Virus record (IMG/VR): IMGVR_UViG_2791355477_000007
DNA: 64,000 bases
Reading direction: 5' to 3' (one strand)
From: a virus
Lineage: Duplodnaviria; Heunggongvirae; Uroviricota; Caudoviricetes
Shown in pieces: positions 20,534 to 60,676 of the stretch (position 1 is its first letter; each line of letters starts with the position of its first letter). Below the pieces are notes generated by a model. That model was not told where the DNA came from and did no database searches. It saw only the letters and a program-made list of their open reading frames with translations. Both the position numbers and the translations under genes were made by a program.

Positions 20534-22030
20534 ATGACAAAACCAAAGAAAGATTGTTTTATTGTAGAACTAAAATTAATGTTGGATACATGGCAAACGG
20601 ATATTCTATGTAAACGTTTTGAAATTGCCCGTAAACTCTATAACACCACATTATCTTACGCAACGAAACAATATAGGCTCATGAAAGAATCAAAAGCTTA
20701 TAGAAAACAAATACGTTGCTATCAAAAGGCAAAAAAAGCAAATCACCCAAAAGAATGGAAAGAAATATCAAAAGAATTAGATAGTATTCGTCAATCTTTT
20801 GGATTAAGTGAATATCAACTTCACGCTTATATAAAAAAACACCAACATAATTATAAAAAACACATAGATAGCTATACCTCTCAAAAAATTGCTTCTACCG
20901 TTTGGAAAGCGATGGAAGATGTGATATTTAAAGGGGCAAAAGCACACTTTAAATCATACGGAATGCTTCATTCGGTAGAAGGGAAATCGAATAAAACGGG
21001 TATTCGATTTAAAGAAAACAGGGTCTATTGGAATGGATTACTCCTTCCTGTTCATTTTCGCAAGAATGATTTATTTATAAAAGAATCTCTCGCCCTTCAT
21101 ACGATAAAATATTGTCGTTTTGTCAAAAAAGTAATTCGTGGAAAAGTTACGTTTTATGTACAGCTTGTTATGGGTGGCATTCCCCCTGCAAAGAGAATCA
21201 ATAAAACAGGAGCATTTCGACATTCCTACCAAAAGAAAAAGCGAGTAGGTATAGATATTGGTCCTTCTACCATTGCCATTGTTTCGGAAGAAACCGTTTC
21301 TATCCAAAAAATTGCTCCTGATGTTCCTTTATTTGAGAATCAAAAAAGACGTTTATTACGCAAGTTAGATAGAAGCCGTAGACGTACAAATCCAAATAAC
21401 TTTAACACAAATGGCACAATAAAACGTGGCATCAAGCTTCATTGGATATGTAGTAAAAACTATCAAAAAACAAAAAAATTATTAAATGAGTTGTACAGAA
21501 AAAAAGCTTCTTATATCAAAGAAAAACATGGTGCATTAGCAAATCACATTTTATCTTTAGGTGATGAAGTGTATATTGAAACCATGCATTTTAAAGGATT
21601 AGCAAAACGTACAAAAGAGACAAAAACAAATCAACAAGGCAGATTCCAATCCAAAAAGCGTTTTGGGAAAAGTATTGGGAATCATGCCCCTGCCATGTTA
21701 GTGAACATCATCAATCAAAAATTGAAGTATGGTAAACAAGAGATACAAAAAGTAAATACGATAACTTTTAGAGCCAGTCAATATAATCATGTAACAAATA
21801 GCTATGAAAAGAAAAAACTCCATCAACGATGGAGTCAAATCGGAAATCATCTCGTACAACGAGATTTATATAGTGCTTTTTTATTAATGAATAGTGATGC
21901 AAATTTAAAACAAACCAATCAAGAACGCTGTATCGAAACATTCGATACCTTTGTACATCTACATAATCAACACATAGAAGCATTACAACAAACAAAGAAA
22001 AAATACCCACTCAGCATGGGTATCCTATAA
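20534..22030 (+). CDS. tnpB: TnpB RNA-guided endonuclease (long clade lacking the C-terminal Cys zinc finger)
   Basis: ARKLYN; RuvC-I VGIDIG, RuvC-II YIETM, RuvC-III QRDLYSA; lies between IS605-type ends. Confidence 0.85.
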   Translation: MTKPKKDCFIVELKLMLDTWQTDILCKRFEIARKLYNTTLSYATKQYRLMKESKAYRKQIRCYQKAKKANHPKEWKEISKELDSIRQSFGLSEYQLHAYIKKHQHNYKKHIDSYTSQKIASTVWKAMEDVIFKGAKAHFKSYGMLHSVEGKSNKTGIRFKENRVYWNGLLLPVHFRKNDLFIKESLALHTIKYCRFVKKVIRGKVTFYVQLVMGGIPPAKRINKTGAFRHSYQKKKRVGIDIGPSTIAIVSEETVSIQKIAPDVPLFENQKRRLLRKLDRSRRRTNPNNFNTNGTIKRGIKLHWICSKNYQKTKKLLNELYRKKASYIKEKHGALANHILSLGDEVYIETMHFKGLAKRTKETKTNQQGRFQSKKRFGKSIGNHAPAMLVNIINQKLKYGKQEIQKVNTITFRASQYNHVTNSYEKKKLHQRWSQIGNHLVQRDLYSAFLLMNSDANLKQTNQERCIETFDTFVHLHNQHIEALQQTKKKYPLSMGIL

Positions 22031-29606: not shown

Positions 29607-30533
29607 TCAATTTATTCTCTCCCTCAAATAAGGAGATATTTTATTCTTTATCACTTTTTCTGACAACTCATCTAAGTATGTTACATACACTAAATCCAGA
29701 TTATAATACTTACATAAATCTATTTTTTCCTTATCTCTTTCCTGCCTTCTCTTCAGTCCTTCTTCACCACCCATGAACGGAATAGGTTTGTAATGTTGTT
29801 CCCCCTGATATTCAATGACAAGCTGTAATTCTTCAATATAGATATCCGCTTTTAGATGGTCTAACTCATATTGATGAATAACCGTGTATCCAGGAAACAT
29901 TTCTTTAATTAATTCTAAAAGTTTAATTTCAGATGTCCACTTTTTCCCTATTGCAAAGTACCCCATTCGAGTTCTTATAACATTTTCACAGTATCGTTTA
30001 AAATCTTTAGAGGATTGCTCGTCCAGAACCAGTCGTCCCCCATATTGCTCTTCTGCAATTAGAAGCGGGACAATATCCCCAGGAATATGCTTTGGGTAGC
30101 AAATATCTCTAAATCTATTATCTAATCCATAAGAATAGGACAATGCCTTTATATAATATCCATAAATAGAATAAAACTTTGTTTCATTCATTGTTTTTCC
30201 ATGTCCATACTTCGGACAAACTTTATTACAGATATGGCATAAGTTATCTTCGAATTTAATGTTTTGAATAAAGATTTCCATTAATTCCAACTGTGATGCT
30301 TTCGGAAGACCACTAAACGATAAACGTTCTTTTACTTTTAAATAATTTTCAACACCTTGCTTTTGACACGAACAATAAAATAAGGGGCCATATTTCTCTT
30401 GTTGAAAGGCATGAAATACTCCCATTCTTGTAGGATAGTGAACAAATGGATATGGCAACTCTGGTTCATATTCGACAAATACTCCTCTTGTAATCTCAGG
30501 TATCATTTCTTTCGGCACAATTTTAGAACGCAT
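29607..30533 (-). CDS. Zn-binding plus Vsr/DUF559-like endonuclease domain protein
   Basis: CSC, CHIC; KADIY..LVIEYQGEQHY...RDKEK..LC. Confidence 0.75.
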   Translation of the reverse strand: MRSKIVPKEMIPEITRGVFVEYEPELPYPFVHYPTRMGVFHAFQQEKYGPLFYCSCQKQGVENYLKVKERLSFSGLPKASQLELMEIFIQNIKFEDNLCHICNKVCPKYGHGKTMNETKFYSIYGYYIKALSYSYGLDNRFRDICYPKHIPGDIVPLLIAEEQYGGRLVLDEQSSKDFKRYCENVIRTRMGYFAIGKKWTSEIKLLELIKEMFPGYTVIHQYELDHLKADIYIEELQLVIEYQGEQHYKPIPFMGGEEGLKRRQERDKEKIDLCKYYNLDLVYVTYLDELSEKVIKNKISPYLRERIN

Positions 30534-37840: not shown

Positions 37841-38857
37841 ATGACAAAAAAGGATATAACGGAAGAATTAATTCATATATGGAAGGCAGAATATGAAGAA
37901 GGAGCATCCCTTCGAAAAATCGGCGAAAAACACGGTGTGTCGAAAGCAACTGTAGGAAAGCATCTGACTGGTGTCGTTACCTTTAGAGAAAAGGCTCCTC
38001 ATAAGAAATATGCAGATGAATGGTATGAACTTTATTTATCAGGATGGAGCAAATCTGCTATTGCGAAAAAATACAACGTTTCGGCTGTATCTGTTGGCAA
38101 AATCCTACGTACTGAAAAAGGAGTAGAGATGCAAGGTCGCAAAAAAGAGTTGATGCATTTACTACCAACTTTCAAATCTTTATATGAAGAAGGATATGAC
38201 TTGACTTATATTAGCGATAAGACAAGTGTATCCAGACAATGTATCTTAGATTATTTAAATGATGCAGGAGTTGAAATCCGTTCCTATAGTGAATCCTCTC
38301 GAAAATATGAAGTCGATGAAGAGTTTTTTGAGAAAATTGACTCAGATTATAAAGCTTATATATTAGGATTGGTATTTAGTTCTGGAAACTTACTGGAGCA
38401 CTACAAATCTTATTCCTTATCCATGGTTGTAAAAAAAGATAGAGTCTCGATATTAGAAGAAATATTTCAGGCTTTGACAAACAAAAAGACAGAAGAATTA
38501 CTTTATGTCTCAGTAGATAATTGCTATAAAGACCGCATCTGTTCTTTAAAAATATATAATTCTCTTAATCGCCTGGGATTAGATTTTAGAAGTAAGATGA
38601 CATTCCCTACTCTTGAAGACGAATATTTAGAACATTTTCTAAAAGGTTACCTAAAAGGTTCTTCGAGCTTTGCATCCAAACGGGGATATTTGACTATTAA
38701 TTCTGAGCCCCTTTTTTATGAATCGTTAGTGAATTCCATTTCATCTATAATAGATATAGATAAGAAATATCTTCGAAAACACAAATACTCAACTGCCAGT
38801 ATTACCGTTTATCAGAAAGAGTCCGTAGAGAAAATTAAGAATTTCATTAATAGCTAA
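37841..38857 (+). CDS. triple-HTH plus degenerate LAGLIDADG domain protein
   Basis: three YxxGxS..I...xVS...V HTH units; FFEKIDSDYKAYILGLVFSSG and HFLKGYLKGSS. Confidence 0.75.
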   Translation: MTKKDITEELIHIWKAEYEEGASLRKIGEKHGVSKATVGKHLTGVVTFREKAPHKKYADEWYELYLSGWSKSAIAKKYNVSAVSVGKILRTEKGVEMQGRKKELMHLLPTFKSLYEEGYDLTYISDKTSVSRQCILDYLNDAGVEIRSYSESSRKYEVDEEFFEKIDSDYKAYILGLVFSSGNLLEHYKSYSLSMVVKKDRVSILEEIFQALTNKKTEELLYVSVDNCYKDRICSLKIYNSLNRLGLDFRSKMTFPTLEDEYLEHFLKGYLKGSSSFASKRGYLTINSEPLFYESLVNSISSIIDIDKKYLRKHKYSTASITVYQKESVEKIKNFINS

Positions 38858-44383: not shown

Positions 44384-44569
44384 TTTATAAACTCCCCTTT
44401 TTAAATAATTGATTTTCAATACCTCTTTTATAATCTGTCTCTTTATTTTAGATTGCTAACCAATAAGCTATAACTACTCAGCATAAATAAAAACCCACTA
44501 TCATTCAGTGAGTTTTTTAATTTATATTTGTTTCTTTTTTCATGCTTAGTATAAATATAAAGTTAATTT

Positions 44570-44730
44570 AGTGAGGATAACATGAAGTTTTTATATAAGT
44601 ATGTACCTTAGCTTGTTGCAATGCCATCGGATTGCTTTTCTAATAACACTTAGTTCCCTTTATACTTTCATATCTCAATAGCATAGTTAATTAGAACGGT
44701 TTTTCTAATAACACTTAGTTCCCTTTATAC
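44570..44730 (-). CRISPR. orphan mini-CRISPR array: 2 identical 30-bp repeats, 1 degenerate terminal repeat, 2 spacers
   Basis: GTATAAAGGGAACTAAGTGTTATTAGAAAA at 44701-44730 and 44636-44665; 35-bp spacer; degenerate copy 44570-44599 at a 66-bp period. Confidence 0.75.
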
Positions 44731-44885
44731 CCCTTATACAAAAGCCAATGATAATAAGCTTTTGCAGAACACTTTTGCAGTGAATCCTTAGTTATGTTTT
44801 TATAAAAACACGAAAAATACTCAAGAATCCTTATATCTAAAGAGTTCTTTTATTTTTAATCTATTTTTAGATTTACTGCATTTTT
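44731..44885 (-). promoter_or_regulatory. CRISPR leader
   Basis: AT-rich; TGCAGTAAATC...GATTCACTGCA inverted repeat, ends GGG next to repeat 1, as in Firmicutes I-B leaders. Confidence 0.6.
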
Positions 44886-44887
44886 AC

Positions 44888-45967
44888 TTATTCCGATAAA
44901 GGATAATTCTCTCTTTTTTGCGTCTCTCCAAATAGCATATCAATAAATGTATTTACCAAGTATCTATCAATTGGAGAACCTGCTGATTGTGGATGTCCAC
45001 CTCCACGGAATACATAAGCAATATCATTTCCAATATGGATATCATCTCTTACACCTCGATAACTAATTGTTCGAGATGGATTAATAATAATGATAAAATC
45101 CAAATCAGGTCTTCTTTCAGCTAAAACATTTCCTAATTCAGAATGATACTGTTCCGCAAAAATAACTCCTGCTGAATGTCCCAAAATATTCTTTTCAATG
45201 ATTGTTTGTTCTTTACCATTAATATAATTTTCAATTCGTTTTTCTTCGATTTGAATAATTGTTAATTCTAATTGATTAAACTTATATTCTGTTTGTAGTT
45301 TCTCCAATACTAATCCCTCAAATTTCTTACGACCATATAAATATAGCAATGCATTCCATCTATTGGGCTCAATATCATCATACACTTTATGCCATTCCCA
45401 AGTATCATATCTTCGAACAGATTCAACAAATTTCTTAACAGCCTTTAGATTAGCATTGAACTTTACATTTTGAGACATGAAGTATTCAAACAATAATGAT
45501 GTAGCAGATGTTTTAGCGTCCATTCTTTCATCTACAGGTTTAGAAAAGCTCGTTTTAGAGGTCGCTGATTCAATCAAAGCCCATTCGTATTCAAGAATCC
45601 ATGGTCGCTTCTCTGTTGAATGATGGTCAATATAAATGACAATGATTTCCTTATTCTTGTGTAACTTATCTAACGCCTTACAGTTCTCCTCACTAATAAA
45701 AATATCTGTGATAAAAACAACATCATATTTCTTGTAAGAGCCATTGGTAATAAACGTCTGAACTTCCTCATCTACTCGCTTATAATCTAAATAACGAACG
45801 TTCCTGTTCTTAAATGCTAATTTTGTTAAAATGCCACAACCAACCCCATCATAGTCATTATGAGAAAAGTGTTTTACTCGTAGTTCTTTTAATAAATGAA
45901 ATGGTAAATCTGCTAACACATTAAATGGTAAATTTGCTGTCACATTAACTGGTAATTTTACTAACAT
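44888..45967 (-). CDS. nrnB: DHH-family phosphoesterase, NrnB-like oligoribonuclease
   Basis: HNDYDG, ITD, IDHH, YDTWEW, GGGHPQSAG. Confidence 0.85.
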   Translation of the reverse strand: MLVKLPVNVTANLPFNVLADLPFHLLKELRVKHFSHNDYDGVGCGILTKLAFKNRNVRYLDYKRVDEEVQTFITNGSYKKYDVVFITDIFISEENCKALDKLHKNKEIIVIYIDHHSTEKRPWILEYEWALIESATSKTSFSKPVDERMDAKTSATSLLFEYFMSQNVKFNANLKAVKKFVESVRRYDTWEWHKVYDDIEPNRWNALLYLYGRKKFEGLVLEKLQTEYKFNQLELTIIQIEEKRIENYINGKEQTIIEKNILGHSAGVIFAEQYHSELGNVLAERRPDLDFIIIINPSRTISYRGVRDDIHIGNDIAYVFRGGGHPQSAGSPIDRYLVNTFIDMLFGETQKRENYPLSE

Positions 45968-46064: not shown

Positions 46065-47399
46065 TTATGCTATTTGTTCCGTTTCTCTGATAAAAGGTAT
46101 AAATAGGTCAAATAAAATTTTATTAATATCCTCTATATCCCAAAATGGTATTCTAAACATTCTAATCCCATTTACCTTACAATAATTATTTTTTATCTCA
46201 TCTCGTTTTTGCAAAGTTTCAAAAGCTTTTTTCCCACCAAAAATAGAGACTGGCGTAATATGTTGTTGCCCATCATATTCAATTACGGCCACAAGATTAT
46301 TATTACTGAAAATACCAAAGTCAAATCTCAAGTCTCTTTTGTATCTACATCCTTCTGCAATATATTGGGATTCATAAACGATATTATGCTCTTGTAAGAA
46401 TTTTTCTATCTCTTTTTCCCCTTTGCTTGCTCTACATTTCGGGCATCTTCTACCTGCAAAAAAATTATGAGGTGTACTGTCCCATATATGACCGCATTCA
46501 TTATGTTTTAAAGACACATGAGTTTTAACATCAATATATTTACCTATAACACTGTATTTGTCGCCTTCTAACCGATAAATATCAGATACAAACTCTGCGT
46601 GTGTTTTCCGTTTTTTGATATTAGCCTTTTTAGATGAACATTTAGAACAACGACAACCTTTTGAAAAATTATTAGGTGCAATTTCAACTATTTCACCACA
46701 TTTTCTGTGCAACATTCTTATTTTTATCTTATTGTTTATATACTCACCAACAACTATATATTCATCACCAACTATTTGATTTACTTTCTTTTTAAAATCT
46801 TTTATCCCTTTTTGTTTAGAATTGCATTCTGGACATCTGCTATTATTTGTTAAAAAGTTCTTAGGTGTGACTAACCACTCATTACCACATGTAGTGTGTT
46901 GCATTAATATCTTTTCTCTATTATTTTTATAAGTTCCTAAAACTTTATATTCATTTTTAACATTTTCATAGACTTCTTTTATGAAATCCGCATGTGTTTT
47001 TTTATATCTTTTGATTTGTTTACTATTACAAGTTGTACATCCCTTGCATTTTTTTAAATTCAAAGGTGTAAATGCCCACTCCCTGCCACAAACCAAGTGT
47101 TTCATTTTTACTTTTGTGCGATTATTAATATATTCTCCGATAACAACATACTCATCGCCCCACTGATTTAAAACATCTTTTTGGAATTGCTCTTTTGTCT
47201 TTCTACCTTTTCCACAGTGAGAACATTTACTCCTATGCAAAAATTGATACGGAAATACATCCCATTCATGATTACAAAGTAAGTGTTTTATTCTTATTTT
47301 TTCTTTACTTCCCTTATAAGTTCCTATAACAACATAATCATTTCCTACAAAGGTTTTAACCTCTTTAACAAATTCTTCATGTGTCTTTTTCTTTGTCAT
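46065..47399 (-). CDS. free-standing putative homing endonuclease: 5 zinc-binding repeats plus Vsr/DUF559-like nuclease domain
   Basis: repeated Y.V.G.Y......H..CG..W...P..F...CxxC; SKGE, LRFDF, IEYDGQQH, RDEIKN.YC. Confidence 0.8.
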   Translation of the reverse strand: MTKKKTHEEFVKEVKTFVGNDYVVIGTYKGSKEKIRIKHLLCNHEWDVFPYQFLHRSKCSHCGKGRKTKEQFQKDVLNQWGDEYVVIGEYINNRTKVKMKHLVCGREWAFTPLNLKKCKGCTTCNSKQIKRYKKTHADFIKEVYENVKNEYKVLGTYKNNREKILMQHTTCGNEWLVTPKNFLTNNSRCPECNSKQKGIKDFKKKVNQIVGDEYIVVGEYINNKIKIRMLHRKCGEIVEIAPNNFSKGCRCSKCSSKKANIKKRKTHAEFVSDIYRLEGDKYSVIGKYIDVKTHVSLKHNECGHIWDSTPHNFFAGRRCPKCRASKGEKEIEKFLQEHNIVYESQYIAEGCRYKRDLRFDFGIFSNNNLVAVIEYDGQQHITPVSIFGGKKAFETLQKRDEIKNNYCKVNGIRMFRIPFWDIEDINKILFDLFIPFIRETEQIA

Positions 47400-59874: not shown

Positions 59875-60676
59875 TAACCTGCACTTCTATTGTTATTCCA
59901 AATTCATCAAATGATGTCTTTAATAATTCTAAAAACTCTGGGTTTGCATAAGAAATAGTAATTGATTCTGTCTCCATTAATAATGCAAGTGCCGTAACAA
60001 AACTCAAATCATGAATTAGCGAATTCATTTTCACTCTGGTATCATACAACTCTATCCCAAAACATTCCTTCATTGTATCAGCCGTATAAACATCACCATC
60101 TGAATCTTTTATTTCCACTCGTTCATTTACAAGTAATAATTCTAAACGTTCAAATGCACATAACGACTTTCCTTTGCTTATTAAAGTTTGAAAACAAATC
60201 AAGGAAACATCTTGCTCTTCTTCTGCATCTTGTTCAAAACTTGTTAAAGCATTCTCCATACTATTTACAAACAAAACAGCACTTCTTTTCAAATCAGAAG
60301 TATTAAATAGAATAAACGTCTCAATATCCAGTTGTTTTTGTGATTCAAAAAATTCCTGCAACCTATCACTTATCATTTGAACAAGAATAGACATTCCCTC
60401 TACTTGTTGAAGTAATTCCTTACTTAGGCAAGCTGAAATATAAACATCCTCAAATCCTTTTTCTTGCATTTCCATCTTGCTGTATTTTTTAAATGCCTGT
60501 TTTGTAATGTGTCGTGATAAAACATCCAAAATACGATTATATCCATCTTGATTATTCCAATTTAATTCTAATTGGTTCCCACTATGTAATGCAGAGTAAA
60601 TCATTAATGGAGTTAACAGCATTTCCGCATATAAACTTTTAATATCTTCTGTATTTTTTACTGTAATTTTATTCAT
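59867..60676 (-). CDS. YtxC-like protein
   Basis: LDIETFILF and D..F.TAL..L.....I.I resemble YtxC; tentative. Confidence 0.5.
   Translation of the reverse strand: MNKITVKNTEDIKSLYAEMLLTPLMIYSALHSGNQLELNWNNQDGYNRILDVLSRHITKQAFKKYSKMEMQEKGFEDVYISACLSKELLQQVEGMSILVQMISDRLQEFFESQKQLDIETFILFNTSDLKRSAVLFVNSMENALTSFEQDAEEEQDVSLICFQTLISKGKSLCAFERLELLLVNERVEIKDSDGDVYTADTMKECFGIELYDTRVKMNSLIHDLSFVTALALLMETESITISYANPEFLELLKTSFDEFGITIEVQVND

Follow-up and report, generated by a model that had tools for sequence, protein, structure and literature searches.

The 64,000-base stretch of DNA analyzed here, which we refer to as the window, carries a two-spacer CRISPR array on its minus strand, raising the question of which Cas proteins, if any, use its guides and against which DNA these guides are directed. 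The window corresponds to positions 6425-70424 of NC_018878.1 (BTB_502p), with 1 mismatch in 64,000 bases. BTB_502p is a 501,911-bp plasmid of the Bacillus cereus group, described as novel in its announcement paper, which makes no mention of CRISPR (PMC3569317), and a 99.99% identical plasmid copy in another strain is reported in PMC3795215. Protein clusters contained 36 members for Cas8 and 31 for a DHH-family protein, and among the 15 matches listed per cluster, many lie on 490-505-kb contigs from several B. cereus-group species, indicating that BTB_502p therefore belongs to a plasmid family. The plasmid has conjugation genes, and the window also contains phage-like replication genes at 38911-63028 (primase, SSB, RuvC, topoisomerase, and NrdI) and three free-standing homing-endonuclease-like genes (29607-30533, 37841-38857, and 46065-47399).

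Two identical 30-mers occur at 44636-44665 and 44701-44730 with a period of 65 bp; identical 20-mers spaced 50 to 90 bp apart occurred in none of 200 block-shuffled windows. With identical direct repeats separated by unique spacers of even length, as in type I arrays, and with a leader, the locus (44489-44887) is a genuine type I-like CRISPR array. The initial annotation had given 30-bp repeats with spacers of 35 and 36 bp. The identical pair was confirmed, but 29 bp is the better reading of the repeat length, because the target site on other plasmids also has the A of the 30th position and because related cas-linked arrays carry 29-bp repeats in the same register. The A common to both 30-mers is then the first base of each spacer, correcting the spacer lengths to 36 and 37 nt.

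Read along the minus strand, the array begins with a 157-bp leader (44731-44887) that carries the noted pair of inverted hexamers, at 44880 and 44781, followed by repeat 1 (44702-44730), spacer 1 (44666-44701, 36 nt), an identical repeat 2 (44637-44665), and spacer 2 (44600-44636, 37 nt). The decayed third repeat noted at the expected spacing was also found, 66 bp further on (44571-44599); it is 13/29 identical and retains the 10-base core AACT-NNN-TGTTAT in register. An intrinsic-terminator-like hairpin on the same strand (44489-44517; one found in the scan versus 0.2 expected) closes the array. Directly upstream, also on the minus strand, lies a gene annotated as a DHH-family phosphoesterase (44888-45967; Pfam DHH, E = 9e-7), the stop codon of which abuts the leader. 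We found no sigma-70-like site in a scan of 44400-45000, leader included. Rfam returned nothing at gathering level in the window and no CRISPR-DR family on the repeats. A 32-bp stretch at 44402-44433 recurs on another contig in three sequencing runs. Identical spacers were present in two other DNA runs, which may represent the same lineage.

The description of the array as an orphan with no cas genes nearby holds for the 64-kb window, in which we found none, but not for the replicon, which encodes a cas3/6/8/7/5 set at NC_018878.1 434,060-445,039, with 82.6-93.5 kb between it and the array around the circular plasmid. First comes cas3 (442,949-445,039); after a few intervening genes follow cas6, a 460-amino-acid (aa) gene, cas7, a 120-aa open reading frame (ORF), and a 237-aa gene. 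By sequence profiles, on which all of these assignments rest, the 460-aa protein is Cas8a-like (E = 8e-132; PADLOC PDLC01586 was the best profile) and the 237-aa protein is Cas5a-like (E = 1.5e-9), with further matches to Cas7 (E = 2e-33; DevR/Csa2-like), Cas6 (E = 1e-15), and Cas3 (E = 3e-57). All five cas ORFs are open, although the 120-aa ORF separates cas7 from cas5 and other genes separate cas3 from cas6. Cas3 is one fused protein with the helicase first (residues 20-440) and the HD domain last (residues 517-680), and it has the Walker A and DExQ motifs and HD residues H514, H548, D549, H586, H609, H610, and D680 in common with an intact relative. Genes for cas1, cas2, and cas4 were not found on the plasmid.

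The composition of this set is mixed with respect to known subtypes. Canonical subtype I-B has a Cas3 with an N-terminal HD domain. In BTB_502p the HD domain is C-terminal, cas1-cas2-cas4 is absent, and no plasmid protein matched a Cas8b profile. The Cas8a, Cas5a, and Csa2-like Cas7 labels are those of subtype I-A, in which cas3' and cas3'' are split and a separate gene encodes the small subunit; here, Cas3 is single and fused, and a weak Cas11a match (E = 0.005) falls inside Cas8. The array itself, with its 29-bp AT-rich repeat and 36- to 37-nt spacers, resembles those of type I-B systems in Bacillota. The further likeness to V-F repeats suggested by the initial annotation found no support, as the Cas12f/TnpB domain PF07282 had no match on the plasmid (0 of 1 record). 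Thus, of the partners proposed for the repeat, a cas6 gene is present on the replicon along with a Cas8a-like gene, and a related repeat occurs in cas-linked arrays, whereas neither a Cas8b profile match nor a Cas12f domain was detected. A 498-aa TnpB-like ORF does occur in the window (20534-22030, plus strand), below the family cutoff and lacking a zinc-ribbon domain match; it matches no Cas12 profile, has hairpin-like ends on its flanks, and seems to interrupt another reading frame. The strength of the Cas8a profile match implies that this predicted protein family is already within published profile sets. Searches of viral contigs for Cas7, DHH protein, and Cas8 relatives gave none or one weak match. 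We found no description of this array or cas set in the literature, although subscription papers and bioRxiv supplements might list it, and the system table of a B. cereus-group survey (PMC7242445) did not contain any of the six protein or accession stems tried.

Relatives of the array connect its repeat and leader to this Cas family. When metagenomes were scanned for the 10-base core in three spaced copies, 87 stretches were retrieved; of the 86 loci summarized, most proved to be tandem repeats or to belong to a single unrelated CRISPR family. On two contigs (L113 and L137/L138), however, three loci were arrays with a 29-bp repeat that is 21/29 identical to that of the plasmid array, situated directly behind a cas6-cas8-cas7-cas5 set; in L113, the HD end of cas3 comes before this set. 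Their Cas proteins are 39-54% identical to the BTB_502p counterparts, and none of 500 shuffles aligned to the plasmid leader as well as the L113 leader does. The arrays of L113 (5850-6315) and L137 (5780-6160) are divided in two by a second copy of the 3' portion of cas5 together with the leader. A Clostridiaceae genome (L035) has the same five cas genes and an array of 29-bp repeats, with no cas1 found; its leader alignment to the plasmid leader was not significant (162 of 500 shuffles), but the two inverted motifs can be recognized in it. In pJFP838A, the closest relative among plasmids, the cas set is at 104.7-110.6 kb and a remote array of about ten repeats lies about 40 kb away at 148.5-149.1 kb, again with no cas1. 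Because the same type of repeat and leader sits beside the same Cas family elsewhere, the array likely belongs with the cas genes of its own plasmid, judging from these comparisons. The proposal that it borrows Cas effectors in trans is therefore unneeded, since the replicon encodes Cas3/6/8/7/5 and relatives of these flank a related repeat and leader; spacer acquisition alone would be borrowed.

No exact copy of the repeat turned up in viral, genome, or metagenome contigs, and a 22-nt repeat piece had no exact match in 185,579 species genomes (one per species) or in metagenome contigs. Pieces of 13 to 14 nt were absent from the supplements of the B. cereus-group survey (PMC7242445). The three-core pattern in viral contigs gave two matches, both unrelated tandem repeats.

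Spacer 1 matched 153 plasmid records, mostly of the pXO2/pAW63 family and 131 of them typed as conjugative, with full identity in 36 records that presumably include the megaplasmid itself. We read eight targets: the match is 36/36 in pBT9727 and pCh4_83, has 1-3 mismatches in pYWC2-8-4, pXO2, pAW63, pFORC47_2, and p107, and in pBMB165 is exact over the first 25 nt of the spacer. Several targets, including pAW63, carry seed-region mismatches at positions 2 and/or 11. A 5' CCA flanks all eight, but as these sites are homologous, they count as one conserved protospacer-adjacent motif (PAM) observation resting on one protospacer family. The target occupies the interval between parA and repS, inside one arm of a predicted long hairpin, and in pBT9727 the rep gene starts about 196 bp downstream of it; Rfam returned nothing on this rep-leader target. 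Target plasmids are described as a pXO2-like family with pAM-beta-1 replicons (PMC9673590). The co-resident 78-kb plasmid BTB_78p has no spacer 1 target. These matches suggest that the array carries a guide against competing plasmids, as anticipated. The same check yielded nothing for spacer 2, which had no credible match in plasmids, phages, or viral contigs (at best 21-24/37 in eight plasmids scanned). In related systems, one weak match lacking a PAM was found for the L113 spacers among phages, and one pJFP838A spacer resembles small plasmids, with a match that fits badly toward the 5' end and yielded no PAM.

In our view, the two-spacer array probably supplies guides, from a distance, to a type I system that is encoded on the same plasmid, lacks adaptation genes, and is directed against incoming pXO2/pAW63-family conjugative plasmids. 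In the mechanism that we propose, transcription would read through from the DHH gene across the array to the terminator. Contigs from four RNA runs (two studies) cover the DHH gene and all or most of the array, although contigs cannot give strand, ends, or level; two raw RNA runs contained no reads. The plasmid Cas6 would then cleave 8 nt before the repeat end to yield crRNAs of about 65 nt, and the plasmid Cascade would bind the CCA-flanked site, allowing Cas3, through its helicase and C-terminal HD nuclease, to degrade the target DNA. Cascade positioned on the rep leader would be expected to hinder rep expression as well. The spacers were probably inserted in trans by a type I-B-like Cas1-Cas2 of an earlier host. 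CCN is a working PAM for both interference and adaptation in the Clostridioides difficile I-B system (PMC8406132), whereas the B. cereus I-C PAM is TTN (PMC7242445); CCA fits the former, which makes an I-B-like integrase the likelier spacer donor.

Alternatively, the array and cas genes may be an inactive relic, with spacer 1 recording a past encounter and nothing being cleared now. The cas genes are scattered, adaptation genes are missing, only two spacers are present, and the leader has no promoter-like site. CRISPR systems of the B. cereus group are reported to be mostly defective (PMC7242445), and the pJFP838A relative, in which cas3, cas6, and cas8 are split, demonstrates that this Cas family does decay. 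Against this, the five ORFs of BTB_502p are open with catalytic residues kept, Cas8 is at least 90% identical across its 36 cluster members, and the identical repeats, the perfect PAM-flanked spacer, and the terminator have all been retained. We therefore regard a relic as unlikely.

The array might instead act by binding only, repressing transcription of a rival rep gene, or as a decoy, without Cas3 cutting. In favor of this, the spacer 1 target sits in a hairpin arm 196 bp ahead of repS, repression is described as the means by which type IV-A and V-M systems of plasmids remove rivals (PMC11656645), and many degenerate units of regulatory look occur elsewhere on the plasmid. Spacer 1 is a poor fit to such a role, which the initial annotation had also raised, being of full length and matching perfectly beside a PAM, whereas regulatory guides are described as partial matches (10.1101/2023.03.03.530964). 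As Cas3 also keeps its helicase and HD motifs, we judge action by binding or decoy without cutting to be very unlikely for the array, although a regulatory or decoy role may suit the degenerate clusters described below. Finally, that the array is functionally a true orphan, read by a host chromosomal Cascade in the manner of viral mini-arrays, is hardly credible even with more than 80 kb between array and plasmid cas genes, a CCA PAM that suits a host-type I-B system, and complete I-B systems reported in 27 B. cereus-group strains (PMC7242445), because the element encodes its own cas effectors, the repeat and leader type travel with that Cas family, and neither the 22-nt nor the 13- to 14-nt repeat pieces were found in the species genomes, metagenome contigs, and survey supplements searched above.

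In the system that we favor, a plasmid-encoded Cascade guided by the remote array, the same Cas6 might also act on further repeats. The repeat core occurs 35 times on BTB_502p versus 4.7 expected, and besides the array we found 30 degenerate repeat copies in six clusters on NC_018878.1: 5 units at 194.3 kb (194,345-194,686), 11 at 207.9-208.5 kb (207,915-208,506), 5 at 210.5 kb (210,515-210,760), 3 at 212.7 kb and 4 at 213.1 kb (together 212,628-213,260), and 2 at 442.9 kb (442,857-442,945). All clusters are intergenic and in the sense of the upstream gene, with a period of mostly 47-66 and short inserts, most of 18-37 nt. Cluster C is immediately adjacent to a tyrosine recombinase, the 442.9-kb cluster comes right after cas3, and a SpoIISA toxin-antitoxin gene and small ORFs are neighbors of others. 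Terminator-like hairpins end two clusters, a third cluster has a hairpin that scored on the other strand, and a short upstream motif is common to three. Near these clusters, a SAVED-domain gene lies beside a cGAS/DncV-like nucleotidyltransferase gene as a CBASS-like pair (215,501-217,960).

The decay of these repeats is uneven, the 3' core having remained intact. In a scan with the L113 repeat, which was not fully independent since the regions had been picked by the core, core identity was 98% in 20 units versus 67% in 70 background matches, whereas identity of the 5' third was 48% versus 65%. CreA-type repeats are described as decaying similarly (PMC9458426), and degenerate repeats with a 3' handle and short spacers are what characterize crRNA-like RNAs. 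A reading of the clusters as integron or recombinase sites, to which the recombinase next to cluster C might point, was provisionally set aside, as their units align in register with repeats of this CRISPR family.

Searches for what the cluster inserts might recognize gave a single candidate. Among 24 inserts, none had a seed match beside a CCN on BTB_502p, and one (F2) had such a match on other plasmids. F2 matches a hairpin element of the co-resident conjugative plasmid BTB_78p at 17/20 positions, with a CCT PAM and mismatches at 6, 12, and 20, which none of 500 shuffles reached. On two of five further plasmids, copies of that element give shorter F2 matches, a total of 2 versus a shuffle mean of 2.1, and when no PAM was demanded, 48 of 300 shuffles reached the same length. 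The F2 target in BTB_78p (about 60,290-60,400) is short, combines a promoter with a hairpin, and is possibly a small RNA gene; three of five other B. cereus-group plasmids carry related copies. Against Rfam it gave no family and only subthreshold noise. No near-perfect match was found for clusters C and D to F among plasmids or for cluster C among phages, and insert structure was not above that of shuffles (mean z of -0.16).

The clusters may be short regulatory or decoy guides, for which the F2 match offers no more than a lead; they may also represent remnants of old arrays, decoys, or sites bound by proteins. A broader idea is that a single Cascade would serve a two-tier RNA arsenal in which the mini-array kills pXO2-family rivals via Cas3, while the at least 30 degenerate repeats are cut by the same Cas6 into 18- to 37-nt guides that silence, without cutting, co-resident plasmid or host genes. 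We offer this idea tentatively and consider it doubtful. If processed, the clusters would be far larger than the crRNA-like arrays reported in the sources that we compared (PMC9458426; 10.1101/2024.10.29.618823; 10.1101/2023.03.03.530964).

If our preferred reading is correct, BTB_502p would offer a concrete example of plasmid families fighting one another with CRISPR in the B. cereus group, most of whose CRISPR systems are regarded as inactivated, and pXO2/pAW63-type plasmids may be held back by a widespread family of 500-kb plasmids. An array that looks like an orphan within one stretch of sequence can be linked in function to cas genes about 90 kb away. The set further points to a little-studied type I variant that combines a Cas8a-like protein with an I-B-like repeat and PAM and a Cas3 with a C-terminal HD domain.

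Comparison with known systems places the BTB_502p array among several of them. Like the plasmid CRISPRs described for inter-plasmid competition (type IV-A, V-M, and others; PMC11656645), it resides on a large plasmid, lacks an adaptation module, and has a spacer against conjugative plasmids, with acquisition presumably borrowed from a host system. In contrast to those systems, the set is type I with a predicted active Cas3, its cas genes are scattered, and its two-spacer array lies 83-94 kb off. Mini-arrays of mobile elements that use host Cas proteins (PMC11656645) likewise combine two spacers and a leader, target a rival element, and have no cas genes nearby, but BTB_502p encodes its own cognate effector, and its repeat was in no genome scanned. 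With the C. difficile type I-B system (PMC8406132), the array has in common a CCN-type PAM and a leader with inverted-repeat motifs, whereas the plasmid set has a Cas8a-scoring large subunit, Cas5a- and DevR/Csa2-like subunits, a C-terminal HD domain, and no cas1/2/4. The degenerate clusters are similar to CreA, CreR, Cracr, and Racr decoys (PMC9458426; 10.1101/2024.10.29.618823; 10.1101/2023.03.03.530964) in having short inserts, several units per run, and repeats that have decayed but preserve the Cas5-binding 3' portion. They differ from these crRNA-like regulatory RNAs in that none of the plasmid's cas or toxin promoters is matched by a cluster insert, and from the Cracr arrays reported there, which have two to three spacers and use host Cas proteins, in comprising up to 11 units on a replicon with its own Cas proteins. 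Competition between plasmids by plasmid-borne CRISPR is thus already known; what sets BTB_502p apart is the hybrid type I makeup, the remote two-spacer array, and the degenerate clusters.
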